Under the pieces are notes generated by a model. That model saw only the letters and a program-made list of their open reading frames with translations. It was not told the DNA's origin and searched no databases. A program made the translations under genes and the position numbers. A stretch of 64,000 nt of DNA from a virus (lineage: Duplodnaviria; Caudoviricetes), in the IMG/VR virus record IMGVR_UViG_3300043438_001421, positions 1,126-65,125 of that record, one strand, 5' to 3'. Below, one piece after another: positions 2,165 through 58,353 of the stretch (positions are counted from its first letter, which is position 1; each line of letters begins with the position of its first letter).

Positions 2165-2554
2165 ATGAAAGAATACTACGAATTCCTTATGTTTGAACTT
2201 AAGGATATTGAAGAGGAATTTGATATTCCTTCTCAAATTGCTCATGAAATTTGTTTACTTCTTAGTTTAGAAAATAACTTCATTCCAGAATCTTTTTTTA
2301 GATTATATCTCTCTAAATTAGGTACAGATTATTCTGTACTGTATAATGCCGCAGCTTATTTTTCTGGAGCCAAATTTTTGAAAATTGAGTGTGACTGCCC
2401 GGAATCTGATAAGATGCTTTGTGATCTTCATTCAGTCAGCGAAAGCGCTTTTTATGAAATCGGTGCAGATGACTTTGCAAACACCACATCCAAGTGGCAG
2501 AAGATCAATCAAAGTATTCAGATGATAAGGACTTCTATATTCAATGATTGTTAA
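2165..2554 (+). CDS. hypothetical protein
   Basis: 129-aa ORF with GGAG RBS, overlapping the def start. Confidence 0.65.
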   Translation: MKEYYEFLMFELKDIEEEFDIPSQIAHEICLLLSLENNFIPESFFRLYLSKLGTDYSVLYNAAAYFSGAKFLKIECDCPESDKMLCDLHSVSESAFYEIGADDFANTTSKWQKINQSIQMIRTSIFNDC

Positions 2555-3065
2555 GTACCCTGATAATAGACTGGATCAAGTATCTGTTTCAGCTTTAGAA
2601 AATCTAACTAAAAATGAGATAGATAATCTTTGCTATGAAATGCGCAAAGAATGCTGGGAAGTAAATGGATTGGGTATTGCAGCCATCCAAATTGGACAGC
2701 CGTATAGAGTCTTCGGGATTTTGAATCCAAATAAAAGAGATCTTATGTGGATGATTGATCCACAAATCAGAAGGTGTTCAGGGAGTATAACTTATACAGA
2801 AGGATGTCTTTCTATCCCCGGATACTTCTGGGATGTTACTAGATACAATAAACTTTCTATCTCCTTTTTTGATTCTAAGGGTGCTAAGCACTACAGAACA
2901 TTCTCAGGAATTCATGCGAGGATTATTCAGCATGAAATGGATCACATCGATGGACTTCTCATTCCAGATCTTATGGATGATGATAAATTTATTAACTTCG
3001 ATAATCACTTTTCTTCAAGCCTTCCAGCATCGGAGTATGATGCTCCAAAGATTAGTGTGATTTAA
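2544..3065 (+). CDS. def: peptide deformylase
   Basis: All three PDF motifs present: GLGIAAIQIG, EGCLSIPG, QHEMDH. Confidence 0.95.
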   Translation: MIVKYPDNRLDQVSVSALENLTKNEIDNLCYEMRKECWEVNGLGIAAIQIGQPYRVFGILNPNKRDLMWMIDPQIRRCSGSITYTEGCLSIPGYFWDVTRYNKLSISFFDSKGAKHYRTFSGIHARIIQHEMDHIDGLLIPDLMDDDKFINFDNHFSSSLPASEYDAPKISVI

Positions 3066-3070
3066 GGTTA

Positions 3071-3144
3071 GGACACTTAGCTCAGTTGGTTAGAGCGTCT
3101 CGTTTACACCGAGAGGGTCGGGGGTTCGAATCCCTCAGTGTCCA
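3071..3144 (+). tRNA. tRNA-Val(TAC)
   Basis: Acceptor GGACACT/AGTGTCC, D-arm TAGCTCAGTTGGTTAGAGC, anticodon arm TCTCG-ttTACac-CGAGA, GGTTCGAATCC T-loop; CCA not encoded. Confidence 0.95.
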
Positions 3145-3146
3145 CT

Positions 3147-4358
3147 ATGAAAATAGGATCAGTTTTCTCAGGAGGTGGCGGTGGAGATTTGGGTTTCAAA
3201 TCTTCCGGACACCAAATAACATTCGGTTGTGAGATCAATGAATATGCTAGATCTGTATTGAGAAAGCATAATCCTGATCTTATAATTTATAACGACATTA
3301 AGGAGATAACTCTTGAAAGATTACTCGCAGACGGAGCAGAAATCCCCGAAGTCATCTTTGGAGGAAGTCCATGCCAAGACTTATCTGTGGCTGGATACCG
3401 TGAAGGATTGGGCGGAGAGCGTAGTGGATTGTTCACTGAGCAATGCAGAGTCGCTGACGAAATCTCTGCCCCGTGGATTGTCTGGGAAAATGTCGTCGGA
3501 GCATTCTCAAGCAATAAAGGAAGAGACTTCGCAGAAGTCCTTTACTACACAACAGGATTCCGTCCTGAAGTTCCAAAGGGAGGATGGAAGAGCGGAGGAG
3601 TCTGTATTGGACCCAAGCGATCAGCCGTTTGGCGCGTGCTTGACGCTCAAGCTTTCGGAGTCCCACAAAGACGCAGAAGAATCTTTCTTGTCGCAGGTCC
3701 TAGAGAGTTGGCGTCCAGAATTATCGACGTTTTATTTGAGCCCGAAAGCAGCGAGCGGAATTCTACGGAGGGCAGAAAAACGGGACAGGAAATTGCCGGA
3801 GAGACTCAAGAGCGCATTGGAACATCTAGCGTCGGAGCTTTAACTGAGATATCTCAGAGCATTCTTGCGAGGTATGGAAGTCGTGGCGATCTAGAGACTG
3901 AAACTTTCATTGTAGAGAAGGTGTGGTCTGGCTCTACGCACAAAGAGGATCTTGCTGCAACTTTAACTGATCCAGCAGGTGGTCAGAGGACAACAAACAT
4001 TGATGGAGCATCTTGGGTAGTGTATGACACTAAACCCTATGTTGCTTTTGATTCAAATTACTCTGGGCAATATTCTATAGTTAATAATGGAGATATTTCT
4101 CCCACCATCAAGCTTGGATCAAATCTCAATGGTCAGCCTCCTGCTATTGGATGCGGGGATATTGTCAGGAGACTCACTCCTCTTGAATGCGAGAGGTTGA
4201 TGGGATGGCCTGATAATTATACTAAAGTTGGATTAGCAGATAATCGTTTTGATGTCAATATCTCAAATAGTCAGAGATATAGGATCTGTGGAAATGGTAT
4301 TGTTTCAAATGTTACATATTGGATTGGTAATCAATTAAATAAGGTTTTAGATGTCTGA
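3147..4358 (+). CDS. C5 cytosine DNA methyltransferase
   Basis: Motif I FSGGGGGDLG, motif IV GSPCQDLS, motif VI ENV, motif VIII QRRRRIF, motif IX RRLTPLECERLMGWP, motif X GNGIV; start set to the ATG after the tRNA. Confidence 0.93.
   Translation: MKIGSVFSGGGGGDLGFKSSGHQITFGCEINEYARSVLRKHNPDLIIYNDIKEITLERLLADGAEIPEVIFGGSPCQDLSVAGYREGLGGERSGLFTEQCRVADEISAPWIVWENVVGAFSSNKGRDFAEVLYYTTGFRPEVPKGGWKSGGVCIGPKRSAVWRVLDAQAFGVPQRRRRIFLVAGPRELASRIIDVLFEPESSERNSTEGRKTGQEIAGETQERIGTSSVGALTEISQSILARYGSRGDLETETFIVEKVWSGSTHKEDLAATLTDPAGGQRTTNIDGASWVVYDTKPYVAFDSNYSGQYSIVNNGDISPTIKLGSNLNGQPPAIGCGDIVRRLTPLECERLMGWPDNYTKVGLADNRFDVNISNSQRYRICGNGIVSNVTYWIGNQLNKVLDV
3313..3843 (+). CDS. overlapping alternative-frame ORF inside the methyltransferase (beta-polypeptide-like); true start uncertain (in-frame ATG at 3490)
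   Basis: 176 open codons in the +1 frame ending LSQVLE...FYLSPKAASGILRRAEKRDRKLPERLKSALE, resembling the LxDxLE...YYLS segment of C5 MTase variable regions. Confidence 0.6.
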   Translation: MKDYSQTEQKSPKSSLEEVHAKTYLWLDTVKDWAESVVDCSLSNAESLTKSLPRGLSGKMSSEHSQAIKEETSQKSFTTQQDSVLKFQREDGRAEESVLDPSDQPFGACLTLKLSESHKDAEESFLSQVLESWRPELSTFYLSPKAASGILRRAEKRDRKLPERLKSALEHLASEL

Positions 4359-4554
4359 AGAAAAACAATATACTTTTAATTTAACTGAAATGGAAGCATT
4401 TTATCTAAATGCAGCTGTAGTGGACTTTTTCCACAAAATGAAGAATGCTGCTGAGCAGGAAGTTGTTGTCCTGTTTATGGATGACAGATACAGAGTAGCT
4501 AAAGACTTGTGGGTAAAAGTTGAAAAGCAGATTCCAGTTGGTGAGTGGAAGTAG
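4351..4554 (+). CDS. hypothetical protein
   Basis: 67-aa ORF overlapping the MTase stop. Confidence 0.6.
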   Translation: MSEEKQYTFNLTEMEAFYLNAAVVDFFHKMKNAAEQEVVVLFMDDRYRVAKDLWVKVEKQIPVGEWK

Positions 4555-4574
4555 TATATGCTAGTATTTTATTG

Positions 4575-4904
4575 ATGGTATATCGCGAGTACATTACTTC
4601 TGATTTATGGAGAATTCGCAAAAGACGTTATTTTGAGACTCATGAAAGAAAATGTAGAGCGTGTAATTCTAAGAAAAAAATTCATCTGCATCATAAGACG
4701 TATAGAAGACTTGGTGAAGAGCGGGACGCTGATTTAGTCCCGCTTTGTCATTCTTGCCATACTGCTCTGCATATACGGCAGAAGAGCACAGGGCAGAATC
4801 TTTGGCGACTGACAGAAGAATTCATTAAGAACAAAAAACGTAGATATAAAAATAGTAGATTAAAAAAACGTCCAACAAACAAACGCAAGCCCCGTACTAG
4901 GTGA
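4575..4904 (+). CDS. HNH endonuclease
   Basis: CRAC...HLHHKTYRRLGEE..DLVPLCHSCHTALH; TGCTAGTAT 7 nt before the ATG at 4575. Confidence 0.85.
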   Translation: MVYREYITSDLWRIRKRRYFETHERKCRACNSKKKIHLHHKTYRRLGEERDADLVPLCHSCHTALHIRQKSTGQNLWRLTEEFIKNKKRRYKNSRLKKRPTNKRKPRTR

Positions 4905-4918
4905 TACAATAGCCTTGT

Positions 4919-5722
4919 ATGATTTATGCCAAGGTAATCGCTGACAGCATCACTGGATCTGGTGATCGTTTAACTACTATGGAAGTTCAGATGCATCGCT
5001 TTGTGCTTGCTGAGTTTAATACGCACAGAGTGTTCTCTAGAAACTCTTCGTCTTCAAGAGCTATCCCCATCAAGAAGCAGATTGATAGAGTCCGGAAAGA
5101 TCCAGCTTTTCCTGTTGCTTGGGGTATTAATCAAGCAGGAATGCAAGCTGAGAGAAATCTCAGCATAAGCCGATCAAGGAAAGCGCGATGGATTTGGAAG
5201 AGAGCTTCTAAGAAGGCTATCAAGAGTGCAAAACTTCTAGATGACTTGGGCGTGCATAAGCAGATTACAAATAGAATTCTTGAACCGTTTATGTGGCATA
5301 CAGTTATTGTGTCATCAACTGACTGGGAAGGATTTTTTGAGCAGAGATGCAACAAGCTTGCTCAGCCGGAGATTAGAGAAGTTGCTTTAGCTATGCAATA
5401 CGCTTATAGCAAATCTGTTCCTGATTTCATTACTACAGGAGAATACCATCTTCCCTATCTGCAGCCAGAAGAATATCGTCTTGACGATAATCTGAAGATG
5501 AAAGCTTGCATTGCCAGATGTGCTAGAGTATCTTACTTAACTCATAATAATGAAAAGTCTCTTCTAAAAGATATTCAATTATTTGAAAAGCTTGTGACGG
5601 CAGATCCGCCACATTGGAGTCCGATGGAACACGTTGCGACTCCTATCACTCCAGATCTTGACGGGAGTGGAAATTTCTCTGGGTTCGCTCAGGTTCGACA
5701 TAATTTACATTTGGTGTTCTAG
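4919..5722 (+). CDS. thyX: FAD-dependent thymidylate synthase (ThyX-like)
   Basis: EFNTHRVFSRNSSSSRAIP, HKQITNRILEP, ARCARVSY and HWSPMEH motifs of phage ThyX. Confidence 0.9.
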   Translation: MIYAKVIADSITGSGDRLTTMEVQMHRFVLAEFNTHRVFSRNSSSSRAIPIKKQIDRVRKDPAFPVAWGINQAGMQAERNLSISRSRKARWIWKRASKKAIKSAKLLDDLGVHKQITNRILEPFMWHTVIVSSTDWEGFFEQRCNKLAQPEIREVALAMQYAYSKSVPDFITTGEYHLPYLQPEEYRLDDNLKMKACIARCARVSYLTHNNEKSLLKDIQLFEKLVTADPPHWSPMEHVATPITPDLDGSGNFSGFAQVRHNLHLVF

Positions 5723-5919
5723 TGGTTGCAAAATCGGTTCTATGTTTAAATAAAAATCATTCAGAGTGCAAGACAGATCATTGCCAGTGTTCATGTCATC
5801 ATGAGCACAATTGTGACTGCTTTGCTTGCAAGATAAGATCTATTAGCTTCGGAGATGTTCCGGGCGGATATAAATCTAATAATGTTAGTTCTTCTTCTAG
5901 AAAGAAGGAAGACTTCTAG
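5722..5919 (+). CDS. small Cys/His-rich protein
   Basis: CLNKNHSECKTDHCQCSCHHEHNCDCFACK; GTG start overlaps the thyX stop. Confidence 0.6.
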   Translation: MVAKSVLCLNKNHSECKTDHCQCSCHHEHNCDCFACKIRSISFGDVPGGYKSNNVSSSSRKKEDF

Positions 5920-6003
5920 GAAGGGTGGCAGAGCGGACGAATGCGTCGGTCTTGAAAACCGTTGTGGGGCAACTCACCGTGGGTTCGAATCCCACCCCTT
6001 CCA
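5919..6003 (+). tRNA. tRNA-Ser(TGA)
   Basis: Acceptor GGAAGGG/CCCTTCC, anticodon CGGT-ctTGAaa-ACCG, long variable arm, GGTTCGAATCC. Confidence 0.9.
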
Positions 6004-6063
6004 CGGGCTTTTTATAATTGATAATGATATACTAGTTATGTTCTTAGGAGGAATATAAAACTT

Positions 6064-12193: not shown

Positions 12194-12267
12194 CCGGCAG
12201 TAGCTCAGTTGGTGAGAGCACAAGTCTTATATACTTGCGGTCGGTGGTTCAATCCCACCCTGCCGGA
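12194..12267 (+). tRNA. tRNA-Ile(TAT)
   Basis: Acceptor CCGGCAG/CTGCCGG plus A73, D-arm TAGCTCAGTTGGTGAGAGC, anticodon arm CAAGT-ctTATat-ACTTG, T-arm GGTGG-TTCAATC-CCACC. Confidence 0.88.
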
Positions 12268-12280
12268 CTAAGGAGTTTAT

Positions 12281-15379: not shown

Positions 15380-15453
15380 GTCCTTGTAGCTCAGCGGATT
15401 AGAGCGGATGGTTTCTACCCATTAGGTCGGGAGTTCGAATCTCTCCAAGGACG
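15380..15453 (+). tRNA. tRNA-Arg(TCT)
   Basis: Acceptor GTCCTTG/CAAGGAC, anticodon GATGG-ttTCTac-CCATT, GTTCGAATC. Confidence 0.92.
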
Positions 15454-15484
15454 CCTGAAAATATCAAATATGATATAATCATTT

Positions 15485-21684: not shown

Positions 21685-22023
21685 ATGGCAGCACCAGCGA
21701 ATTATCCATTATCAATTAGAATTGGCGATACTGAGACGGTATCTGTTACGCTTCAAGATGCCGATGGTGTTGCTATCAACATCACTGGAAGAACCTATTC
21801 AGCGCAGGTTAGAGAGAAGGCAAGTTCTGATTCTGCACTTGCTTCATTTACTTGTTCAGTAGTAAATGCTGCTCAAGGGAAGTTCGCTTGCACCTTGTCG
21901 TCAGCAACTACAACGGCTCTTTCGCCAGCAAATGCCGTATGGGATCTTCAGGAGAATAATGGAGGGGTGATCACAACTTTGATGGCGGGCGAAGCTGTGA
22001 TCTCTAGAGATGTAACTAGATGA
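21685..22023 (+). CDS. fibre adaptor / BppU-N-like protein 1
   Basis: [16 protein letters not shown]...G.F...LSSATT..L...VWDLQ...G...ISRDVT. Confidence 0.7.
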
Positions 22024-25000
22024 GCGATAACGTCACACTTAGGGTAGTTGAATCTCTTGTTCTTCGCCCTAGTGGTGACGGTGTTGTTCTTCAGAAAGTT
22101 GAGCCCGACACAGTTTTTTTGCAACAGAATATTGATGTTGCGATTTTGCGGGTTGATACTGATGATGTAATTATCAGACCTTCTGAAGAAGTTGTCCTTA
22201 AAAAAGATTCTGTTGACATTATTGCTTCAGGAGTTTCTGGTCCTATGGGGCCTCAAGGTGTTCAGGGGCCTCAAGGACCCGGTGGATTTGTTGGGTCCGA
22301 TGGTGCTCAGGGGCCGCAAGGTCCTCAAGGACCTTTTGGTGGTCCACAGGGTACACAAGGTCCTCAAGGCCCGCAAGGCGCTCAGGGATCTCAAGGCCCG
22401 CAAGGATCGCAAGGTTCGACTGGTGTTCAAGGTGCAACTGGCGCTACCGGGGCGACTGGAGCACAAGGTTCTCAGGGGCCTCAAGGAACGCAAGGTCCGC
22501 AGGGTTCTCAGGGTGCTACTGGTTCAATTGGTCTGACTGGCGCTCAAGGAAGTCAAGGCCCGCAAGGAGCACAGGGATCTCAAGGACCTCAAGGAACTCA
22601 GGGTGCTACTGGTTCGCAAGGCGCTACTGGCTCTCAGGGCTCTACTGGTGTGACTGGAGCGCAAGGCGCTCAAGGTCCGCAAGGAGCAATTGGCGCTACA
22701 GGTATTCAAGGAAGTCAGGGTCCTCAAGGCGCTATTGGGGCGACGGGGGCTCAGGGCAATGAAGGCCCTCAGGGTGCTCAAGGACCAAAGGGCTCACAAG
22801 GTGCAACAGGTGCAACTGGGCCTCAAGGTTTTCAGGGTCCACAAGGAGATCAAGGTCCTCAGGGAGCACAATCAACTGTTCAGGGTCCACAAGGAACTCA
22901 AGGCCCTCAGGGGCCTCAAGGCGCACAAGGATCAACTGGTGCAGCCTCTACTGTAGCAGGCCCTCAAGGCCCACAAGGCTCTCAGGGAATTCAGGGCCCT
23001 CAAGGTCCTCAAGGTCCTCAGGGTGCAACTGGAGCTCAGGGGGCGACGGGAGCGCAAGGTTCAACTGGCGCTCAAGGTTCTCAAGGTCCACAGGGACCTC
23101 AAGGATCAACTGGTTCCCAAGGTGCTACTGGATCTCAAGGTGTCATAGGAGATCAAGGTCCTCAAGGTACACAGGGTCCTATTGGAGCAACTGGTCTTAC
23201 TGGAGCGCAAGGTAGTCAAGGCCCTCAAGGCCCTCAAGGCCCTCAAGGCCCTCAAGGCAATCAAGGCCCTCAAGGTTCTACAGGAGCGGAATCCACTGTT
23301 CCCGGACCTCAAGGCGTTCAGGGGCCGCAAGGTTCTCAAGGATCTCAAGGGGCAACTGGCTCGCAAGGAACTCAGGGCCCTCAGGGAAGTGCTGGCGTTC
23401 AAGGGACTCAGGGACCTCAGGGTTCTCAAGGTGTCGCTGGATCGCAAGGTCCTCAAGGACCTGAGGGATCTCAGGGCAGTCAAGGATTTCAGGGCGCAAA
23501 TGGTGCTCAAGGACCCGCTGGTCCTCAGGGATCTCAAGGTTCAACGGGATCACAAGGAAGTCAAGGTCCCCAAGGTCCTGCTGGCGTTCAAGGAACACAG
23601 GGTCCTGAAGGAGCGCAGGGTGCCAATGGTCCTCAGGGCGATCAGGGCCCTCAAGGTGTTGTTGGAGCGCAAGGATCTACTGGTGCCCAAGGTTCGCAAG
23701 GCCCACAAGGCTCTCAGGGTGCGACGGGCGCTCAAGGATCTCAAGGTCCTCAGGGGTCACAAGGCTCTGTTGGTCCACAGGGAGATCAAGGGCCTGTTGG
23801 TTCACAAGGAAGTCAAGGTCCTGCCGGAGTCCAAGGTTCGCAAGGCCCTCAAGGGCCACAAGGTGCTGTCGGCTCCACTGGCGCTCAAGGTGATCAAGGC
23901 CCGATTGGCCCTCAAGGTAATCAGGGGCCTCAGGGTAATGTTGGGGCACAAGGTTCTCAGGGGCCACAGGGCGCATCTGGATCTACTGGTGCTCAGGGAA
24001 GTCAGGGTCCTCAGGGGCCACAAGGTTCTCAGGGTTCCGTTGGTCCTCAAGGTAGTCAAGGTTCATCTGGAGAGCAAGGAGATCAAGGCCCACAAGGACC
24101 TGTTGGCTCACAAGGAAGTCAAGGTCCTTCCGGGCCTCAGGGTAGCCAAGGTCCTCAGGGCATTGGTGGTGATCAAGGTGTTCAAGGACCTCAAGGACCT
24201 AATGGTAGTCAAGGAGCTCAAGGTTTTCAAGGCCCGCAAGGCGCTACTGGCAATACTGGCCCTCAAGGTTTTCAAGGCCCGCAAGGCGCTACTGGCGATA
24301 CTGGCCCGCAAGGTGTTCAAGGCCCGACTGGCCCGCAAGGCGATCAAGGCCCACAAGGCTCTACTGGTTCTACTGGCCCAACTGGCCCCCAAGGTTTTCA
24401 AGGCCCGCAAGGCGATACTGGCCAGCAAGGTTTTCAAGGCCCGACTGGCCCGCAAGGCGATCAAGGCCCACAAGGCTCTACTGGTTCTACTGGCCCAACT
24501 GGCCCACAAGGTTTTCAAGGCTCTACTGGCCTGACTGGCGATACTGGCCCGCAAGGCGATCAAGGCCCACAAGGCTCTACTGGTTCTACTGGCCCAACTG
24601 GCCCACAAGGAACACAAGGTCCTCAAGGACCACAGTCTACTGTAGCAGGTCCTCAAGGAGTACAAGGCGCTCAAGGTCCTCAAGGTCCTCAAGGTCCACA
24701 AGGTGCAACCGGAACGCAAGGAGCGGGCGGGGCGTTGGGGTATTGGGGTTCTTTCTATGACATGACGGATCAGCCATTAGTTTCTACAACTGTTGCCCAA
24801 GTTGTTTCTATTGGATCAACTGCTGATGGAAATGGTGTCACCGTTGAGAGTGGCGATGAGATCACCTTCGCTTATGCCGGCGTCTACAGTCTTACGTTCT
24901 CTATACAGGTAACTAACTATGCAAACTCTGTTGAGAAGTCAATCTTTTGGCTCAAGTTGAATGGATCGGATTATCCAGATTCTGCTACAGAAATGGATCT

Positions 25001-26765
25001 ACAACCTAGGAAAAGTTCATCCGAACCGAATCGTCAAGTCATAACTATCAATTATGTTGCCGAAGCTTCTGATGGTGATGCTGTTCAGGTTTATTGGAGC
25101 GGAACTAGTACTGAACTAAAGGTTGAGTCTCTTCCCGCTGGTACTTCTCCCGTCAGCCCAGCAGTTCCGTCGATTATTTTAACTGCTACTCAGGTTCTTT
25201 ATACTCAGGTTGGTCCTCAAGGATATCAAGGACCTCAGGGTCCTGCTGGTGTTCAGGGCAGTCAAGGGCCGCAAGGTCCGCAGGGTGCTCAGTCTACTGT
25301 TCAAGGCCCACAAGGCGATCAAGGCCCTCAAGGAGCTACCGGATCGCAAGGTGCTCAAGGCCCACAAGGTTCTACTGGCTCACAAGGCAGTCAAGGCCCG
25401 CAAGGCGCTACTGGCTCACAAGGCAGTCAAGGCCCGCAGGGCCCGATTGGCCCGCAAGGCGCTACTGGCTCACAAGGCAGTCAAGGCCCGCAGGGCCCGA
25501 TTGGCCCGCAAGGCGATCAAGGCCCGCAAGGCAGTCAAGGCCCGCAAGGCGCTACTGGCTCACAAGGCAGTCAAGGCCCGCAGGGCCCGATTGGCCCGCA
25601 AGGCGATCAAGGCCCGCAGGGCCCGATTGGCCCGCAAGGCGATCAAGGCCCGCAAGGCGATCAAGGCCCGCAAGGCAGTCAAGGCCCGCAAGGCGATCAA
25701 GGCCCGCAAGGCGATCAAGGCCCGCAAGGCGATCAAGGCCCGCAAGGCAGTCAAGGCCCGCAAGGCGCTACTGGCTCACAAGGCAGTCAAGGCCCGCAGG
25801 GCCCGATTGGCCCGCAAGGCGATCAAGGCCCGCAAGGCAGTCAAGGCCCGCAAGGCGCTACTGGCTCACAAGGCAGTCAAGGCCCGCAAGGATCGCAGGG
25901 CGATGTTGGCCCGATGGGGCCGCAAGGTGCTGCTGGCCTTAATGGATCAGATGGAGCGCAAGGTCCGCAAGGCGCTACTGGCCCGCAAGGTTCTCAAGGT
26001 CCGCAAGGCGCTACTGGCGCTCAAGGAGCTGTTGGCTCCCAAGGTGTTCAAGGCCCACAAGGCCCGCAAGGATCTCAAGGCTCTACTGGATCAACGGGTC
26101 CGACTGGATCTCTTATAGCTTATGCCGGATCTTCTGCGCCATCTGGGTGGCTTTTATGTGATGGCTCTGCGGTATCAAGAAGCACCTATGCCGACCTGTT
26201 TGCAGTAACTTCTACGACTTACGGCGTAGGCAATGGATCAACCACATTCAACCTGCCCGATCTTCGTGGACGTGTTCCTGTCGGCTTAGATAACATGGGC
26301 GGAACAGACGCTGCACGACTTTCTGTTGCAAATACTCTCGGCGGATCAGGTGGAGCTGAAACTCATACGCTAACTTCTTCTGAAATTCCGGCGCATAGCC
26401 ACGCAAATACCCTCGGAAGCAACACAGTTGCCTCAACTTCGCATACGCACACTGAAGGAAATCTTGCCACTGCAATCGGCGCTGTCAATAATGACGCTGG
26501 AACAATCGGGTACGAGTCAGGAACCCCTAGGCCAAACAGTAGAGGCCCTGTTTCTACTACTAACTATGTTGCTACAGGATTAACTATTTACAACGGCGCT
26601 TTTGGCCCTCTTACCTTTAATCACTATACAAGAGCATACGGAACAACAAGTGGCCCGACAGGATCTACTACTGTAAGTATCACAAATGCCAATAATACTG
26701 GCGGCGGCGGGTCACATAATAATATGCAGCCATATATCTTGATCAACTATATTATCAAGACTTAA
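22020..26765 (+). CDS. giant collagen-like fibre protein with internal C1q/BclA-like domain and C-terminal tail-collar domain
   Basis: More than 1000 aa of Gly-X-Y (GPQ/GSQ/GAT); globular insert at about 24730-25205; [20 protein letters not shown]...[14 protein letters not shown] collar and [14 protein letters not shown] end. Confidence 0.9.
25370..25890 (+). repeat. near-perfect tandem 9-bp-unit repeats (GGCCCGCAA/GGCGATCAA/GGCAGTCAA) inside the collagen gene
   Basis: Homogeneous codon usage and repeated multi-unit blocks. Confidence 0.85.
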
Positions 26766-50077: not shown

Positions 50078-50532
50078 GTTTAGCATCTAGAAGAAATAGT
50101 ATTTCTTGGGGTCGCGATAACTTTGGGAGTAAAAACCCAAACTTCAATGGTGGCCGTTATGTTGACGATAAAGGATATATTAGGGTGCTACAACCTGAAC
50201 ACCCTTTCAGCAACAGCGGCTATGTTTATGAGCATAGACTGGTCTTGGAGAAGCAGCTTGGTCGCATTCTCCAGACTTGGGAAACTGTTCATCATATAAA
50301 TGAGATAAAGATTGATAATAGGCCGAATAATTTGTACCTCACGACTATCCCTGAGCATAGCGCCATTCATCGTGAGGGCAAGAAGCAAAGCAAAGAGCGT
50401 AGGAAGAAGACTGGCCAGTTGGCCAAAGAGCGCGCCAAGACAGGAAAAAGAACAAAGGGTGGTAAGTTTGTGAAAACTTCCGAGGAAGGTGCTACACTTG
50501 AATCTAATGAACAAGAAAGTAGTGTTGAATGA
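50074..50532 (+). CDS. HNH homing endonuclease (HNH_3 type)
   Basis: NPNFNGGR..D.KGYI, GYVYEHRLVLE..LGR, VHHINEIKIDNRPNNL. Confidence 0.88.
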   Translation: MSLASRRNSISWGRDNFGSKNPNFNGGRYVDDKGYIRVLQPEHPFSNSGYVYEHRLVLEKQLGRILQTWETVHHINEIKIDNRPNNLYLTTIPEHSAIHREGKKQSKERRKKTGQLAKERAKTGKRTKGGKFVKTSEEGATLESNEQESSVE

Positions 50533-51767
50533 AACAATTTAAATACGAGGGGGACGATTCTCTGAATCTTCCCAACTTGGATGGGAAGGAATATAGCCCT
50601 CCCAAGAAAGAAACTACGATTAAAGCTCCGTCATCCTTGAAGCCTAGCGTCGATTGGGACGGAGAGGAAGTTCAGGTTACTTCAGAGGTTTATAGCGAGC
50701 CTGTGAGAGATTGGGATCAACTCCTTGTTGAGCTTGGTTATGATCCAGAACTTTATGAAATTATTGAGCCAGTTAAGCTTTCTTCATGGGATGCTCCTGC
50801 AGGCGAAGGCGAGACGAAGCGATTGTATTCTTACAAGGTCGGGATCAGAGCCAAGCGTGTTACGCAATACCGTGACGAAGACTACAAGGATCTTGTGACG
50901 CTTATCAAGAAGCATCGCCCGATGTCCGACAAGCAGGCCTCAGGAGATGCTACGTTTGTCGTATGCCTTTCTGATTGGCAGATTGGCAAGGCAGATGGTG
51001 ATGGAACAGATGGCACAATTGGCAGGATTCTTGATATGATTGAGGGTGTCACGGAGCGTATTCGTGAACTTCAAAAGTCAGGTAGAAAGATGAAGACGCT
51101 CGTTGTTGCGGGAATTGGTGATATGGTGGAAAACTGCGAAGGGCATTATGCTACGCAGACTTTCACTGTTCAGCTCAATCGTCGTCAGCAAGTACGCGTG
51201 CTTCGCAGGCTTCTGACTAAGGCGATTACTTCTTGGGCGAAGATGTTCAATGAAGTTATTGTCTTGGCGGTTCCCGGAAATCATGGCGAGAACAGAAATG
51301 GATCAGGAAAGTCCTTTACTACAAGGGGAGACAATGATGACGTTGCTGCTTTCGAGATGGTTGCTGAGATTCTTTCTGCAAATCAAGAGGCTTATGGCCA
51401 TGTAAGATTCATCATTCCTGAAGACGAGATTTCTGTCGTCGTTGAGGTGAGTGATACCTATCTTGGCTTCGCTCATGGCCATGTGACAAGCAATGGGTCT
51501 GATCCTCAAAAGAAGATCAAGGAATGGTGGAAGTCTCAAACTTTTACTAACAATCCTATCGGCCATGTAAACATTTTGATTACGGGCCATTACCATCATT
51601 TTTCGGTCATTGAACATGATAATGATAAGATTCATATGCAGTGCCCCGCTATGGATGGTGGAAGTGAATGGTTTAAGGATCTAACTGGTGTCGATTCCCG
51701 TCCGGGAACTTTGACATTTGTTATTGATAAGTCAGAACGTCCCTATAGGGACTTAGAAGTCATCTGA
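50529..51767 (+). CDS. calcineurin-like metallophosphoesterase (Mre11-like nuclease)
   Basis: SDWQIGK, GDMVE, PGNHGE, AHGH, GHYHH. Confidence 0.87.
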   Translation: MKQFKYEGDDSLNLPNLDGKEYSPPKKETTIKAPSSLKPSVDWDGEEVQVTSEVYSEPVRDWDQLLVELGYDPELYEIIEPVKLSSWDAPAGEGETKRLYSYKVGIRAKRVTQYRDEDYKDLVTLIKKHRPMSDKQASGDATFVVCLSDWQIGKADGDGTDGTIGRILDMIEGVTERIRELQKSGRKMKTLVVAGIGDMVENCEGHYATQTFTVQLNRRQQVRVLRRLLTKAITSWAKMFNEVIVLAVPGNHGENRNGSGKSFTTRGDNDDVAAFEMVAEILSANQEAYGHVRFIIPEDEISVVVEVSDTYLGFAHGHVTSNGSDPQKKIKEWWKSQTFTNNPIGHVNILITGHYHHFSVIEHDNDKIHMQCPAMDGGSEWFKDLTGVDSRPGTLTFVIDKSERPYRDLEVI

Positions 51768-53269: not shown

Positions 53270-53516
53270 TCCCCGTCAAGATGATATTATAAAGAGTCTT
53301 GTTGACTATTATTCTAAGTACTATTCGTTGGATGTACTGGAACAGTGTATATTGGAATATGTGAAGCATACTCAAGACCCAATTCTTGTGTATAACTTTG
53401 CATTGGACAGCAGTAAGATCAGGGAGAAAGTTTTGGACTTCCGTAAATCGAAGGAAAGCTTTGATCGTCTCGTAAAGGAGACGGAACAGAGGATGCGTGA
53501 GTTTGATGAATTATGA
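53193..53516 (+). CDS. hypothetical protein upstream of the helicase
   Basis: Helical 107-aa ORF coupled to dnaB. Confidence 0.65.
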   Translation: MNQSSEKILSIFQSSCDENGKLFLPDPRQDDIIKSLVDYYSKYYSLDVLEQCILEYVKHTQDPILVYNFALDSSKIREKVLDFRKSKESFDRLVKETEQRMREFDEL

Positions 53517-54732
53517 ATTGAATTTGCTTAACAGCATTATCAAGTCTGGTGATGTCACCTCTTGTGTTGAGCAGGGTGTGGATCACGTATTTGCTGAATA
53601 TGCTGATGTGTGGAACTTCATTCTTGATTTCAATAACGAGTATGGCCAAGCTCCTTCGAAGGATGTTGTAAAGACAAACTTTAAGGGCTTTGAGTTCTTC
53701 ACTGCCGAGTCTCCTCTTCAGTTTTATATTGATGATGCAAAGAGGCAGAGTTTGGGTCGTGGTGTTCGTGGTGCGTTGTTCAAGGCGTCTGAGGCGCTGA
53801 AGAATGGCGATGATCCAGCGAAGATCTTGACTTTGATTCAGAATGAATCTGCTCAGCTTATTCGTGATTCGGGTCGTTTGAAGGACTCTAATATTGCTGA
53901 TTACTCTGAGCGTGCCGATGTTTTGAAGGATCGGATTCAGAATCCGGATCATAAGATTGTCGGGGTTACGAGTGGCATCAAGGTTATTGATGCTCACTTC
54001 GGAGGCTTTCAGCCCGGTGACTTTGTTGTTGTAATTGGCTGGACTGGTGTTGGTAAGTCAGCGTTGACTAGATTGATGGCTGCTAATGCTTGGCGTGCTG
54101 GATATGTTCCTCTTATCGTATCTCTTGAGATGGATAGGCTTCAGGAAGAGTTCCGCATGGATACAATCCTTAACGCAGGCGAAGTCTTCACTAATACTCA
54201 ATTGACAAATGGCAAAGGTATTTCCCTTGATAAATATGAGGGATGGGCTAAGTCAACATTTGAGGGTAAGCCTCCGATTCATCTAGTGACTTCGGATGGT
54301 ATTGAGACTGCGGATCAGCATTTTGTTCAATCTAAGATTGAGCAGTATAAGCCTGATCTTGTTATCCTTGATTACCATACGCTTTTCGATGATGCTAACA
54401 AGGGTGGTTCGGAAACTGAGCGTGCTAAGAATTTGTCGAAGGCCTTTAAGAGAATGGCTGTTCGTAATCGTGTTCCGATTCTTGATGTGTCGGGCGTGAC
54501 TATGGATGACGGCCATGATGAGCGTCCTCCGGAACTTAGCGAGATCGCTTGGAGCAAGCAGCTTTCTTATGACGCTGATATGGTGCTTTCTGTGCATCGT
54601 TCTGCGGGCAGTGATGTTTTTCAGGTAGTTACTCGCAAAACTAGGCGCTGTGCCCCGTTTGCATTTTATTTGCGCTGGAATCTTGATTCCGGAGAATGGA
54701 AGGAGATTTATGAACACGAAGCGACGGAGTAG
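53497..54732 (+). CDS. dnaB: DnaB-like replicative helicase
   Basis: Walker A GWTGVGKS, SLEM, ILDY, IAWSKQLSYDAD. Confidence 0.92.
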   Translation: MSLMNYELNLLNSIIKSGDVTSCVEQGVDHVFAEYADVWNFILDFNNEYGQAPSKDVVKTNFKGFEFFTAESPLQFYIDDAKRQSLGRGVRGALFKASEALKNGDDPAKILTLIQNESAQLIRDSGRLKDSNIADYSERADVLKDRIQNPDHKIVGVTSGIKVIDAHFGGFQPGDFVVVIGWTGVGKSALTRLMAANAWRAGYVPLIVSLEMDRLQEEFRMDTILNAGEVFTNTQLTNGKGISLDKYEGWAKSTFEGKPPIHLVTSDGIETADQHFVQSKIEQYKPDLVILDYHTLFDDANKGGSETERAKNLSKAFKRMAVRNRVPILDVSGVTMDDGHDERPPELSEIAWSKQLSYDADMVLSVHRSAGSDVFQVVTRKTRRCAPFAFYLRWNLDSGEWKEIYEHEATE

Positions 54733-54910
54733 AAGGCCTGTCCATGTGATTAATGGTACTGCTATTGATCAGGAGACGATCATTCGTCAGCGATCTTGCA
54801 TTGAAGATTATGTGAGAGAAAACTCTGGCAAGCAATTCCGCAAGACTAACGTCAAGTGGAATATGAACGATCAAGGTCATTTCGACTTTACTATCGAATT
54901 CTATGCTTGA
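54710..54910 (+). CDS. hypothetical protein
   Basis: AGGAG RBS before the ATG at 54710; lies between helicase and primase. Confidence 0.65.
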   Translation: MNTKRRSRRPVHVINGTAIDQETIIRQRSCIEDYVRENSGKQFRKTNVKWNMNDQGHFDFTIEFYA

Positions 54911-55820
54911 TATCACGTCATATGTAGAGAGCAAGGGTATCCAAGTTATGAGGGATGATGGCTCAGAGCTTGCTTGCTACTGTCCATTCCATACAAATAT
55001 GGATACACCTGCCTTCTATATTAATAAGTCAACTGGACTTTGGATATGTTTCAATCCTTCCTGCGGGAAGACTGGATCTATCAGAGACTTGATGAGCTTT
55101 TTTGGCGATCATGGAAAGATAGTTAGAGACTATTCGTTAGATGATATTGAGAAAAATCTTATGTATAGTGAAAGTATATATGAGGATAATAGTTGGGATG
55201 AGGCTCTTGAGTCCATTATGATCTCATACCCGGAGGATTTGGAGAAGGTTAAGTATCTAACTGACAGAGGTTTTTCTGAAAAAACTTTGTCATACTTTGA
55301 TATTGCCTATTCAGATTCGAAGCGTAGGATTGTGATCCCGGCTAGGAATGAAAAGCATAAGGTCATTGGATTCATCGGACGTGCGGTTAATCCCGACATT
55401 CAGCCGAAGTATCTGTATTCGAAAGGGTTTCCCAGAAAAGATATTTTATTTAACTTGAACAATGCTAAGCGATATGATTCGTGTATCATTGTTGAGGGTA
55501 GCCTTGATGCTATGAAAGTTCATCAAGCTGGATTCCCTAATGTTGTTTCATCCCTAGGAGCCACTATTACTGATGGTCATATGCTCCTGCTTAGTAAATA
55601 TTTTGATAAGATCGTTATATTTTCTGATAACGATGTCGCTGGATATGCTATGCGAGATCAGATCATATCTAAGTGCTACGGAAAGGATTTGCGAATAATT
55701 GAGTTCCAAGATCCTGACTGCAAAGATCCGGGAGAAATGACTGAAAATCAGATCTCTGATCATATAGACAAATCTATAGACTATTTTACATGGAGTTTTG
55801 AAAATGTTTTTTCGCATTAA
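54903..55820 (+). CDS. dnaG: DNA primase (DnaG-like)
   Basis: CPFH...CFNPSC zinc-binding domain, GFIGR..PKYLYS, TOPRIM VEGSLD and DND.AG. Confidence 0.92.
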   Translation: MLDITSYVESKGIQVMRDDGSELACYCPFHTNMDTPAFYINKSTGLWICFNPSCGKTGSIRDLMSFFGDHGKIVRDYSLDDIEKNLMYSESIYEDNSWDEALESIMISYPEDLEKVKYLTDRGFSEKTLSYFDIAYSDSKRRIVIPARNEKHKVIGFIGRAVNPDIQPKYLYSKGFPRKDILFNLNNAKRYDSCIIVEGSLDAMKVHQAGFPNVVSSLGATITDGHMLLLSKYFDKIVIFSDNDVAGYAMRDQIISKCYGKDLRIIEFQDPDCKDPGEMTENQISDHIDKSIDYFTWSFENVFSH

Positions 55821-55980
55821 GAAATTAACAGCAGATATAATTGAGCTCGAAGTTGGGGAGGAAGCCCTCACGTCGATAGTATTACTCACTCTTGACGAGG
55901 TTTCGCAACTTCGCGATATGCTCAAGTTTATTCCCACTCTCCCCGTAGCGGGTGAGGTGGATCGATGGTATACTAGCTAG
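55804..55980 (+). CDS. small hypothetical protein
   Basis: GGAG upstream of the ATG; overlaps the primase end. Confidence 0.45.
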   Translation: MFFRIKKLTADIIELEVGEEALTSIVLLTLDEVSQLRDMLKFIPTLPVAGEVDRWYTS

Positions 55981-56046
55981 TGCGCCAGTGTGCGCTTAGT
56001 TAACCACATAATGTACGTTTATAACGTCGAAAGGTAAAGGTAAAAA

Positions 56047-56712
56047 ATGAGTATGTTCAAGACTCTTTCTGATCTCAGGAAGAACACAATTGAAAATAAG
56101 GGCTCTGGTGGCCCGCAGGATGGTGAAAGAGTACAGCGGTATTTCACTGTAAAGTCCGGAGAATCTTTTCTCATCCGCTTCCGTCAGGAGTTGACTGAGG
56201 ATTCGCAGAATTATTCTGAGGATGCTGGTGTCGCTCATGTTGTTTCTGTTCACACGAACCCGAATGATTTCCGTAAGAGTGCAGTTTGCACAGGTGATCA
56301 TGAGGAGTTTGGTTATCGCTGCTTTGGTTGCGAGCAAGTTGTTCGTGATCGTGGCTGGAAGGCCAAGCAGCATCTTCTTGTGAATGTTGCTGTTTACAAT
56401 GCCGAGGATGATGTTTGGGAACCGCGTGTTCTTGATCAAAAGTTCACGGGTGCTCATGTTGCTGAAACTATTGTTACTTTCGCTACTGAGTATGGAACGA
56501 TTCTTGATCGTGATTTCAAGATTTCTCGTACTGGTCAGAAGCAGCAGACAAAGTACAACCTCATTCCCCTTGCACCTAAGGATGCGAATGAAAGCATTGC
56601 AAGTCTTCCGATGCACGATTTGACTCGCGTGTATCGAATCATGAATCCTGCTGAACAGGCCGGTTTCTATATTGCCGAAGACGATTCTTCTAGCTCTAAC
56701 GACTGGAAGTAG
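56047..56712 (+). CDS. single-stranded DNA-binding protein (gp32-like)
   Basis: IRFRQELTED, H...C...CFGC, KISRTGQKQQTKYNL, acidic tail ending in W; typical replication-block position. Confidence 0.8.
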   Translation: MSMFKTLSDLRKNTIENKGSGGPQDGERVQRYFTVKSGESFLIRFRQELTEDSQNYSEDAGVAHVVSVHTNPNDFRKSAVCTGDHEEFGYRCFGCEQVVRDRGWKAKQHLLVNVAVYNAEDDVWEPRVLDQKFTGAHVAETIVTFATEYGTILDRDFKISRTGQKQQTKYNLIPLAPKDANESIASLPMHDLTRVYRIMNPAEQAGFYIAEDDSSSSNDWK

Positions 56713-56725
56713 GGTCTGCTCTTGT

Positions 56726-56754
56726 AATTGGGGCCGGAGTTTCCGGCCCCAATT
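56726..56754 (+). terminator. hairpin after ssb
   Basis: AATTGGGGCCGGA-GTT-TCCGGCCCCAATT. Confidence 0.7.
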
Positions 56755-56778
56755 CCTGACTGTATAAGGATATGTGAT

Positions 56779-57306
56779 TTGATAATTCTTGATATTGACG
56801 GAGTGGTAGCTGATATGTTTGGGGAACTTGATTTAGTTCTCCAAGAAGCAGGTTATCCGGCACACCATTGGGAAAAATGGCAGGGGTATCATTGGAGCGA
56901 GATTTATCCTGATATTGATAGGGATGTTCTTGATCTGTTTTTGAAGAATCCATTGTTGGCTAAGAACGCTAAGGCGTTTGAGGATGCTTGGTATTGGACT
57001 AATCATTACAGTTCTCAGTACGACATAATGTATTTGACTGCTAGAGATCCTGCTTTGACTCAGGTTACTTGGAACTGGTTCTTTGAGTGGGATATTCCGG
57101 CAGACTTTGTTGTGTTCGAAAAGAATAAGCCTGAGTTCCTCAGTCAAATTCAAGTTTCTGTTTATGTAGATGATTATCCTGATATGGTGAGGGAGTCTAG
57201 AGACTTGGGCATTAATGCTTTTCTTTTGAATCGTCCGTATAATATGAATGCAGATATTGATCCTGAGTTTCGGATTAATTCTTTGTGGGATATCAAATGC
57301 GTGTAA
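56779..57306 (+). CDS. 5'(3')-deoxyribonucleotidase (HAD, NT5C-like)
   Basis: ILDIDGVVAD, YLTAR, VYVDDYP, LLNRPYN; start probably the TTG at 56779. Confidence 0.85.
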   Translation: MIILDIDGVVADMFGELDLVLQEAGYPAHHWEKWQGYHWSEIYPDIDRDVLDLFLKNPLLAKNAKAFEDAWYWTNHYSSQYDIMYLTARDPALTQVTWNWFFEWDIPADFVVFEKNKPEFLSQIQVSVYVDDYPDMVRESRDLGINAFLLNRPYNMNADIDPEFRINSLWDIKCV

Positions 57307-57662
57307 TTGTTGCTGGCTCAAGGCACAGCAAGATAAATAAGGTTGCAGTCACAACTTTTCTCAATGGTCTTTACGTGGAGTATAAAGATAATCTTTGCAT
57401 TATTTTTTATGGCGAAGATTATATCTCCGACATTGTTGAGGAGTGGGTGCATAAAACATGGCCGGGGTCTAACTCAAAGAACTGCTTCAATTTGGAGTGG
57501 GTCATAAAGCATTGGTCTGGCGATGATGTGCAAGACATAGGCAATTCTATTGTCAAAGAATCAAAACCTGATTTAGCGTTTTTGTTTGGCTATGATCAGT
57601 ATGAAGTTCACAGAGCTTTGCGCTATGCGGAGGTTCCTACTTTTGTTGTGGAGAAATTATGA
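57297..57662 (+). CDS. SLOG/YspA-like (DUF2493-like) protein, divergent
   Basis: MRVIVAGSR N-terminus, ...KPDLAFLF. Confidence 0.6.
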   Translation: MRVIVAGSRHSKINKVAVTTFLNGLYVEYKDNLCIIFYGEDYISDIVEEWVHKTWPGSNSKNCFNLEWVIKHWSGDDVQDIGNSIVKESKPDLAFLFGYDQYEVHRALRYAEVPTFVVEKL

Positions 57663-58141
57663 GTGAGTTGTTGGTGAGCCGTCCCTCTTGGGATGAGTAC
57701 TTCCTTAATCTAGCGAAGGCTACTTCTCAGAGGTCAACCTGCCCAAGCCGAAAGGTTGGCAGTGTTATTATAAATCCTGAAACTAATCAGGTGATTTCTA
57801 TGGGATATAACGGTTCCCCTAGGGGAACGGCACATTGTGGCCCAGAATGCCTTACAAGGGAATCTGGGGGCGGATGGAGGAAGTGTAGAGCCATCCACGC
57901 TGAGCTTAATGCGGTGGTTTCTGCTGCTATGAATGGTGTGAGCACAAATGGTGCTACTATGTACTTGACTACAACGCCATGCGTTTTCTGTTCAAGGATT
58001 TTGATTAACGCCGGAATCAAGAAGGTGATTGCTCTCACGTTTTATCCACAAATGGAGGCGATTGAGCTCTTGCAGGAAGGTGGTATTGATGTTTATGTTG
58101 TCGAAGGGGATACGATCCCCCCTATTTTCATGGAGGCTTGA
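57659..58141 (+). CDS. dCMP deaminase
   Basis: RPSWDEYF, RSTC..RKVG, GYNG.P.G..HC, IHAELNA, PCVFC. Confidence 0.93.
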   Translation: MSELLVSRPSWDEYFLNLAKATSQRSTCPSRKVGSVIINPETNQVISMGYNGSPRGTAHCGPECLTRESGGGWRKCRAIHAELNAVVSAAMNGVSTNGATMYLTTTPCVFCSRILINAGIKKVIALTFYPQMEAIELLQEGGIDVYVVEGDTIPPIFMEA

Positions 58142-58347
58142 TGTATACTTCTAAGGTTCACAAAACGCAGAGTGCGGAGATTACCTTTTCCGAAGAGGAT
58201 TATAATAATTGGAAGTGGGATAATCCCGATGCGAAGCATACTCATGAGAAATATGTCGAAGAGATCGCTCTCGCTTTGATCGATGAAGATTCTTTTTGGG
58301 TTAATGATTCGATTGATATCGTCTGCATCTTACACGGAAGAGACTAA
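58141..58347 (+). CDS. hypothetical protein
   Basis: GGAGG RBS, TGATG coupling to the deaminase. Confidence 0.6.
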   Translation: MYTSKVHKTQSAEITFSEEDYNNWKWDNPDAKHTHEKYVEEIALALIDEDSFWVNDSIDIVCILHGRD

Positions 58348-58353
58348 GGCCTG

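Follow-up and report, generated by a model that had tools for sequence, protein, structure and literature searches.

Two C5 cytosine methyltransferases that are built from two chains provide the background for the gene described here. In M.EcoHK31I (Escherichia coli HK31, YGGCCR), the gene for the alpha chain also encodes the beta chain, nested within it in a different frame, association of both chains is required for activity, and beta carries motif IX, which alpha does not have, according to two papers (PMC2836561, PMC3404938) that relate the work of Lee, Kam and Shaw (1995). In M.AquI, as outlined in PMC3404938, alpha comprises motifs I-VIII together with a portion of the variable region, and beta comprises the rest of the variable region and motifs IX-X. 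We have analyzed a 64,000-nucleotide stretch of viral DNA (the window) that makes up most of the 65-kb IMG/VR virus record IMGVR_UViG_3300043438_001421 and in which a C5 DNA cytosine methyltransferase gene holds a nested open reading frame (ORF) in its +1 frame (Table 1). Comparison with relatives strongly supports dual coding of this gene, and we think it probable that the second chain is separately translated and serves as a partner (beta-like) chain of the methyltransferase, supplying the element that follows motif VIII.

Set beside M.EcoHK31I as those sources describe it, the locus is alike in layout: the second polypeptide lies wholly inside the gene in another frame, as in a nested alpha/beta pair, and the small chain would fall on the small-domain side. 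The content differs, in that motif IX here lies in frame 0 and the nested chain would correspond to a post-motif-VIII element, a comparison that we draw from published descriptions. Because the large chain of the window keeps motif IX and the nested chain does not carry it, we do not file the system as M.EcoHK31I type; the parallel with that enzyme had been proposed in an earlier, sequence-only reading of the window, and it stands for the layout and falls for the content. M.EcoHK31I is, moreover, described there as a single enzyme, whereas the present layout recurs in phages and in many phyla, its protein clusters numbering in the thousands. The split of M.AquI, as far as it is described there, has its like in the relatives L011 and L155 and in proteins such as P0123, in which frame 0 ends after motif VIII and the rest follows in +1. 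The window differs from this split type, since its frame 0 is continuous through motif X, and the second chain of the relatives differs as well in starting about 90–140 codons inside the first gene. E. coli Dcm shares the same ten motifs, and the nested domain aligns weakly to part of it, but Dcm-type genes hold everything in one frame. We found no paper describing the nested gene in a literature search that had most subscription journals and supplements outside its reach, so that a description elsewhere is possible; among the conserved frame transitions listed in PMC3711429, none in the available portion falls in a cytosine methyltransferase.

Two reading frames in one gene

The outer ORF is listed at 3138..4358 (+), and its probable true start is the ATG at 3147, right behind a tRNA-Val gene. 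The frame-0 protein matches Pfam PF00145 (E 1.8e-42; 146.4 bits against a cut-off of 22; residues 1-398 on positions 1-323 of the 324-position profile), TIGR00675 (E 9.9e-41; 140.4 bits against a cut-off of 100.65), and, in a PDB profile search, M.HhaI (E 3.8e-53); the full-length PF00145 match above the curated cut-off makes it a member of the C5 methyltransferase family. Since this match covers the whole profile, motifs IX and X are retained in frame 0, as the sequence-only reading had maintained, and catalytic motifs IV, VI, VIII, IX, and X are all present there; the motif names follow the standard nomenclature. The stop-free nested frame that the same reading had pointed out lies entirely within this gene, is offset by +1 (3313 mod 3 = 1 versus 3147 mod 3 = 0), and spans PCQ, ENV, and QRRRR of frame 0. 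A +1-frame stop (TAA, 3307-3309) lies just 5′ of its TTG. The predicted protein starts MKDYSQTEQKSP (in a shorter form, MKDYSQTEQKSPKSS) and ends ...FYLSPKAASGILRRAEKRDRKLPERLKSALEHLASEL.

Relatives of the gene were gathered by frame-0 homology alone (6 + 80 viral loci and 80 genome loci); with L012, of which only the 3′ end is available, left out, the set comprises 166 loci including the window, ranging in G+C content from 0.31 to 0.71. Over a fixed region defined by frame-0 landmarks, running from 10 codons before ENV to 50 codons past QxRxR, the +1 frame is free of stops in 164 of the 166 loci, where resampling of frame-0 synonymous codons with each locus's own usage leads one to expect 2.65 stops (median probability of no stop, 0.047). 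The open length around motif VIII has a median of 154 codons in +1 versus 30 in +2 (n = 172, including six annotated phage loci). None of 13 Dcm-type control genes is open in +1, each having 1–7 stops; on this comparative evidence the open frame is far more than chance. The window taken alone is only mildly unusual, the probability of no +1 stop over 120 codons being 0.07 on synonymous resampling. The converse also applies: 162 of 164 loci lack any frame-0 stop across the stretch that is constrained in +1, with 2.18 stops expected when +1 codons are resampled synonymously (median probability 0.107). Each frame is kept open through the other frame's constrained stretch.

The pattern of substitution switches from one frame to the other after motif VIII. 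We compared 64 loci whose nested tails share under 60% identity. Over the 49 codons that could be aligned behind motif VIII, amino-acid identity is highest in +1 (0.475; frame 0, 0.245; +2, 0.243), and nucleotide divergence peaks at the third codon position of the +1 frame (0.621, versus 0.453 and 0.387), which is the signature of protein-coding selection in +1. From ENV to motif VIII, amino-acid identity is instead 0.567 in frame 0, versus 0.311 in +1 and 0.305 in +2, and over this segment the same 64 loci average 0 stops per sequence in +1 versus 2.16 in +2. The conserved +1 consensus after motif VIII, YYLS.KA..GILRRA.KRGK.LP, belongs to a stretch about 50 codons long. Two sites are conserved in both frames at once, namely SLSQ(I/V)LE over the motif VIII strand (V/I)F(V/L)VA, and YYLS over VLFE; the LFE motif is retained also in Bacteroidota relatives that have no nested ORF. 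By these measures both frames are under selection, each constrained on a segment complementary to the other's.

Start signals accompany the nested frame. The first ATG, GTG, or TTG lies a median of four codons past the upstream stop and no more than seven codons past it in 137 of 164 loci. This first start is ATG in 102 of the 164, versus 32% of control out-of-frame NTG triplets, and a Shine-Dalgarno (SD) sequence of at least 5 nt precedes it in 65 of 164, versus 609 of 8318 such control triplets (binomial p 4e-31, for loci that are not independent). The nested starts fall into classes at about 9–13, 17–19, 50, and 57–58 codons 5′ of ENV, and the window and its nearest relatives (L007, L008, L009, L010, and L013) have a start with an SD-like site in the last of these positions. 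The nested stop follows QxRxR by 52–83 codons in most loci, a variable distance. Dual coding, as claimed in the sequence-only reading, is strongly supported because both frames avoid stops, selection switches frame, the nested starts are linked to SD sequences, and the nested domain occurs in frame elsewhere, as described below; that reading had named +1 stops in close homologs as the observation that would speak against it, and the count has come out in its favor.

Architectures of the conserved domain

A tblastn search with the last 52 nested codons matched 114 phage records, with at least 80% of the peptide covered in 107, and the hosts of these phages include Vibrio, Mycobacterium, Escherichia, Streptococcus, Ruminococcus, and Caulobacter. 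Eight phage records were inspected. Six have one methyltransferase coding sequence spanning the match, and the match is +1 to that coding sequence in all six (P1 dmt, Omega gp127, Javan105, MW202796, MG592417, and PV036431); the Thibault record annotates the nested tail as hypothetical gp104, and in Schatzie the methyltransferase gene is a misc_feature with an HNH insertion. Between distant phages, alignment at the DNA level is confined to the nested-tail stretch of the gene. We note in passing that the methyltransferase of Omega (L005, 1505-2809) is annotated as two same-frame coding sequences split by one stop, gp127 ending at 2248 and gp128 starting at 2255, and that in the Omega relatives Schatzie and Thibault (L004, L189) an HNH endonuclease gene is inserted in the methyltransferase. 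The dmt gene of P1 (L003, NC_005856) holds a 163-codon open +1 frame (locus 2162-2653; about 66710-67201 of NC_005856) ending ...RYFLSSKACAGILRRGEKRRKSLPPLLQMALQSVAKA, which is absent from the annotated features shown for that record. Among complete E. coli genomes, 517 of 5426 contain the P1 dmt DNA, annotated in every one of the matches listed only as Dam family methyltransferase, and the annotated records examined, that of the model phage P1 included, carry a single methyltransferase gene over this DNA.

The domain is widespread. Searched against 1.84 billion representative proteins, its profile matches 4541 protein clusters (50% identity), of which 3782 score E 1e-10 or better, and most of these clusters are short unnamed proteins; a second profile search returned 4800 proteins at E up to 1e-5 which, where they are named at all, are called "hypothetical protein." No family for the nested protein or its database copies was found in Pfam, PHROGs, or NCBIfam. 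The layout occurs in Proteobacteria, Firmicutes, Actinobacteria, and other phyla, and in their phages.

Where the +1 frame is closed, the domain is found elsewhere in the enzyme. The only loci with +1 stops among the 166, L134 (Chryseobacterium) and L149 (Bacteroidales), have the same domain (...DILQ...VPEKFYLSPQACRGILRRK...) in frame 0, C-terminal and 3′ of motif X; the profile matches the fused copy at E 4e-14 in a 485-aa frame of the Bacteroidota genome. In genome censuses that scored at most 15 candidates per genome, so that the counts are floors, the domain appeared in at least three of 401 sampled Bacteroidota genomes, always in methyltransferase frames of 453–485 aa, and in at least three of 400 scored gammaproteobacterial genomes (401 sampled), always in nested frames of 141–186 aa. 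In a third architecture the +1 frame continues into the recognition region and motifs IX-X, with frame 0 ending once motif VIII is passed. This is seen in L011, which is closely related to the window, in L155, and in database proteins such as P0123, P0092, P0076, and P0125. Each enzyme has one copy of the domain, be it in a nested ORF, in a C-terminal fusion, or in one run with motifs IX-X, and this complementary distribution is the strongest argument that the domain shares a function with the enzyme. As a separate observation, the part of the gene that bears motifs IX-X does not share the frame of motifs I-VIII in L008 (2953-3477) and L009 (2684-3358).

The nested chain as a candidate partner

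We propose that the gene at 3147-4358 is read in two frames and gives rise to two proteins. Frame 0 would yield a full-length C5 cytosine methyltransferase in which some 50 residues after motif VIII form a sequence-free linker, and the +1 frame, initiated independently at the TTG behind AAGGAG, would yield a 176-residue protein whose first 120 or so residues are a disordered leader of unconstrained sequence and whose last 55 or so are a small conserved helical domain. As a partner chain, this domain would bind the methyltransferase and contribute in trans what single-chain enzymes such as Dcm have behind motif VIII, where the small DNA-recognition domain begins, and the long unconstrained leader would act as a tether. 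We infer that the nested chain is translated, that it binds the enzyme and is needed for methylation, and that it completes the small domain.

AlphaFold2, run for the nested protein with 65 aligned nested ORFs, places no secondary structure in residues 1-120, where the predicted local distance difference test score (pLDDT) ranges by block from 48 to 69, and predicts helices at 144-156 and 163-174 within a segment, residues 141-176, of pLDDT 92-98. A predicted complex of the frame-0 protein and the 58-residue nested tail reaches an interaction prediction score from aligned errors (ipSAE) of 0.58 (runs, 0.57-0.62), the best of three controls reaching 0.00; the runs share at least 67% of contacts, and partner pLDDT is at least 75. 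The mark that we applied to such predictions is passed by 58 of 80 solved complexes and two of 110 mismatched pairs; scores up to 0.60 account for only seven of those 80 complexes and for both passing mismatches. These counts hold only roughly because we used our own alignments. In an hhalign comparison the domain falls on E. coli Dcm residues 309-342, just 3′ of motif VIII. The single Dcm sequence gives E 0.011, and a profile built from 13 Dcm-type sequences gives E 7.3e-4 and a probability of 26%. A resemblance of the +1 frame to the segment after motif VIII had been noticed by eye in the earlier reading; it gets weak support from this alignment, which falls at the position named there.

The N-termini of many nested proteins resemble another kind of signal. 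The beta-clamp-binding consensus is QLxLF, according to PMC4549789, and nested ORFs often start MQLTLF, MQLGLF, MQLNLF, MQLDIF, MQSTLF, or alike. With patterns set beforehand, a motif lies in the first 25 residues of 45 of 164 nested ORFs, versus nine of 372 windows from the same ORF bodies and 1.5% of shuffled N-termini. When the first 20 residues are searched for Q..[LMIV]F, Q..[LM].F, or QL.[LMIF][FLW], 61 of 164 nested ORFs match, versus eight of 1155 other ORFs of at least 120 aa in the same DNA. The frame-0 protein and codon usage together predict far fewer occurrences than are seen (strict clamp pattern, 43 loci observed versus 2.3 expected; QL.[LMIF][FLW], 42 versus 1.0), and the excess is present in all three start-position classes. 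The nested protein of the window (MKDYSQTEQKSP) matches none of these patterns; at the aligned place its relatives have QTTLF (L013), QMVLPF (L010), and QTESLF (L008 and L009). Separately, the Bacteroidota fusions L134 (= L176), L149, L191, and L192 share an N-L-N-A-K-L-Y-L-F-D-like stretch that is conserved and precedes the domain by about 25 residues; it lies between motif X and the domain, and the order of hydrophobic LF peptide, linker, and domain is that of the nested proteins.

The likeness to beta-clamp clients thus consists in a QLxLF-like start on a disordered leader in 61 of the 164 nested proteins; the difference is that the window's own nested protein is without the motif, and clamp binding by its relatives is putative. 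A clamp-like motif in about one-third of the relatives suggests that the nested chain may also tether the enzyme to the replication clamp. More tentatively, and with rather more doubt than confidence, we suggest that the nested protein could be a replisome adaptor, with an N-terminal clamp peptide, a disordered tether whose sequence the overlapping catalytic motifs would dictate, and a C-terminal domain that docks on the enzyme and completes it; if this is true, it would explain why the start of the hidden gene lies so far upstream of the conserved domain. DNMT1 carries a PCNA-binding motif that couples methylation to replication, as PMC9690074 relates, and a clamp-like motif on the nested chain would couple methylation to replication likewise. 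We found no paper on a clamp link of bacterial C5 methyltransferases in the literature searched, most subscription journals being outside it.

Several considerations weigh against the proposal that the nested protein is a partner chain. Its translation is putative. The loci counted above include members of the same lineages and are not independent, which inflates the p-values. The similarity of the domain to the Dcm segment is weak, and the complex prediction passes our mark only weakly and so lends weak support to binding. No structural relative of the domain was found in the PDB: a sequence profile search with the domain gave only chance-level matches (E 0.25 and 1.1), and when the AlphaFold2 model was compared by fold with 48,161 PDB representatives, Z did not rise above 3.9 and every match was a generic helical hairpin. 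These results allow no fold assignment and do not establish the place of the domain in the enzyme. The AlphaFold2 model of the frame-0 protein is confident at residues 1-200 and 340-403, with pLDDT below 50 for nearly all of 200-340; since confidence is low across this whole region, the model does not separate linker from recognition region and is no proof of a missing piece. A nested start 70–120 codons 5′ of the conserved domain is explained solely by the idea of a tether, and the clamp motif is missing from the window's leader and from about 100 of the 164 relatives. Finally, L011, L155, and some of the database proteins of the third architecture could be sequencing frameshifts, and the frame breaks in the recognition region of L008 and L009 could be sequencing errors, real splits, or decay.

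Two explanations would do without an independently initiated second protein. The conserved peptide sits at the position of the post-motif-VIII segment of single-chain enzymes, and in L011 and L155 one +1 shift would give a canonical single chain; programmed ribosomal frameshifting might thus be envisaged, with a +1 shift after motif VIII followed either by the nested stop, leaving a truncated enzyme with a conserved tail, or by a shift back that yields a single chain. We regard such a fusion as very unlikely. The +1 frame is open far 5′ of the junction and has an SD sequence and a start codon at its 5′ end, neither of which a shift product needs, and at the junction there is no frame-0 stop (the frame is open in 162 of 164 loci) or recognizable pause signal, no formal slippery-sequence scan having been made; by its open frame 0 and the start signals of its +1 ORF the gene is not of the programmed +1 frameshift class. 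Since SLSQ(I/V)LE and (V/I)F(V/L)VA are both conserved on the same nucleotides, one chain cannot hold both, and the variable distance to the nested stop argues that there is no fixed shift-back site. That there is no second protein at all, and that the +1 frame only looks conserved through constraint on the DNA from motifs of frame 0, from codon bias, or from a nucleic-acid element, we find scarcely credible. Some of the +1 sequence does echo frame 0 (PCQ gives A/V-K/R-T, WENV gives GK(M/T)S, and GVPQRRRR gives ESPNDA), and from ENV to motif VIII the +1 frame is conserved no better than +2. After motif VIII, however, +1 shows three-base periodicity where frame 0 is conserved as poorly as +2; stops are avoided beyond what the frame-0 protein and codon usage predict; the same peptide is present in frame, without any overlap, in Bacteroidota enzymes; and +1 stops interrupt every one of the 13 Dcm-type genes, which share these motifs. 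These observations contradict a pure echo of frame 0.

The nested protein could also be real and yet not complete the enzyme, acting instead as a regulator of methyltransferase expression, as a DNA-binding or anti-defense factor, or purely as a clamp adaptor. We consider this unlikely, though less so than either explanation above. In its favor, the isolated domain is a basic helical hairpin (RRAEKRGK) for which the PDB shows no detectable relative, none of the ten motifs is missing from the frame-0 protein, and the clamp-binding-like N-termini speak for recruitment more than for catalysis. On the other side stand the fusion of the domain in frame to the methyltransferase in two other architectures, with no other partner seen in this analysis, the absence of the nested ORF exactly where a fusion exists, and the complex prediction for enzyme and nested tail, which passes, if weakly. 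A helix-turn-helix regulator was considered as well, and nothing was found in support of it. A partner chain that supplies the post-motif-VIII element therefore seems to us the best account of the nested protein.

Surroundings of the gene and wider meaning

Table 1. Features of the methyltransferase locus and tRNA genes of the window (coordinates are those of the window)
Feature	Coordinates	Strand	Basis or remark
C5 DNA cytosine methyltransferase, frame 0, 403 aa	3147..4358	+	Pfam, TIGR00675, and PDB profile matches
Motif I	within 3147..4358	+	frame-0 translation
Motif IV, PCQ (in GGSPCQDLS)	3369-3377	+	frame-0 translation
Motif VI, ENV (in WENV)	3486-3494	+	frame-0 translation
Motif VIII, QRRRR	3666-3680	+	frame-0 translation
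Motif IX, RRLTPLECERLMGWPDNYT	about 4167-4223	+	frame-0 translation
Motif X, GNG	4290-4298	+	frame-0 translation
Nested ORF, +1 frame, TTG start, 176 codons + TAA (3841-3843)	3313..3843	+	ORF list, sequence
SD-like AAGGAG, 7 nt 5′ of TTG 3313; Lys-Glu in frame 0	3300..3305	+	sequence
N-terminal leader of nested protein, about 118 aa; +1 sequence unconstrained, stop-free, predicted disordered	3313..3666	+	identity, AlphaFold2
Conserved C-terminal domain of nested protein, 58 aa (...SFLSQVLE...FYLSPKAASGILRRAEKRDRKLPERLKSALE...)	3667..3840	+	+1-frame selection
Frame-0 linker PRELASRIIDVLFEPESSERNSTEGRKTGQEIAGETQERIGTSSVGAL, sequence-free but for VLFE.E (3729-3746), kept open	3702..3850	+	identity, stop counts
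tRNA-Val-TAC	3071-3145		ends two bases before methyltransferase ATG
tRNA-Ser-TGA	5919-6004		
tRNA-Ile-TAT	12194-12268		
tRNA-Leu-TAA	15049-15131		
tRNA-Arg-TCT	15380-15455		

The window encodes a portal protein, a tail fiber, a ribonucleotide reductase, a DnaE-type polymerase, a DnaB-like helicase, a primase, and a RecA-like protein, and the virus record is estimated to be 63% complete. The replication set lies at 53497-62725 (DnaB-like helicase, DnaG-like primase, a 1141-aa DnaE-type polymerase III alpha, and the RecA-like protein), and an exonuclease at 50529-51764 is counted with it. All five tRNA anticodons in Table 1 read A-ending codons. Near the methyltransferase are genes for what we take to be a peptide deformylase-like protein (2544-3065, motifs EGCLS and HEMDH), an HNH-type-like protein (4545-4904, presumed from the motif CxxC...HH...CxxCH), and, judged by eye, presumably a ThyX-like thymidylate synthase (4919-5722). 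Elsewhere, a 1581-aa ORF at 22020-26765, the most G+C-rich part of the window (0.49-0.53), holds same-strand ORFs of 450 aa (23182-24534) and 302 aa (25210-26118) in other frames; these may be chance products of G+C-rich or repetitive DNA, or another overlap.

Long overlaps between genes on the same strand are considered rare in bacteria and phages, with few well-supported cases. The nested overlap described here sits inside one of the best-studied enzyme families. Should the nested chain be required, activity could be lost from genes of this family that are cloned or recoded, codon optimization would silently destroy a subunit, and both methylome predictions and the database annotations of these enzymes would be incomplete. 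If the nested protein is in addition a replisome adaptor, phages and prophages would methylate DNA at the replication fork, in a bacterial counterpart of DNMT1 on PCNA. The coupling of bacterial DNA methylation to the fork is a long-standing question, and the finding of clamp-like motifs on the nested chains would make it directly testable.

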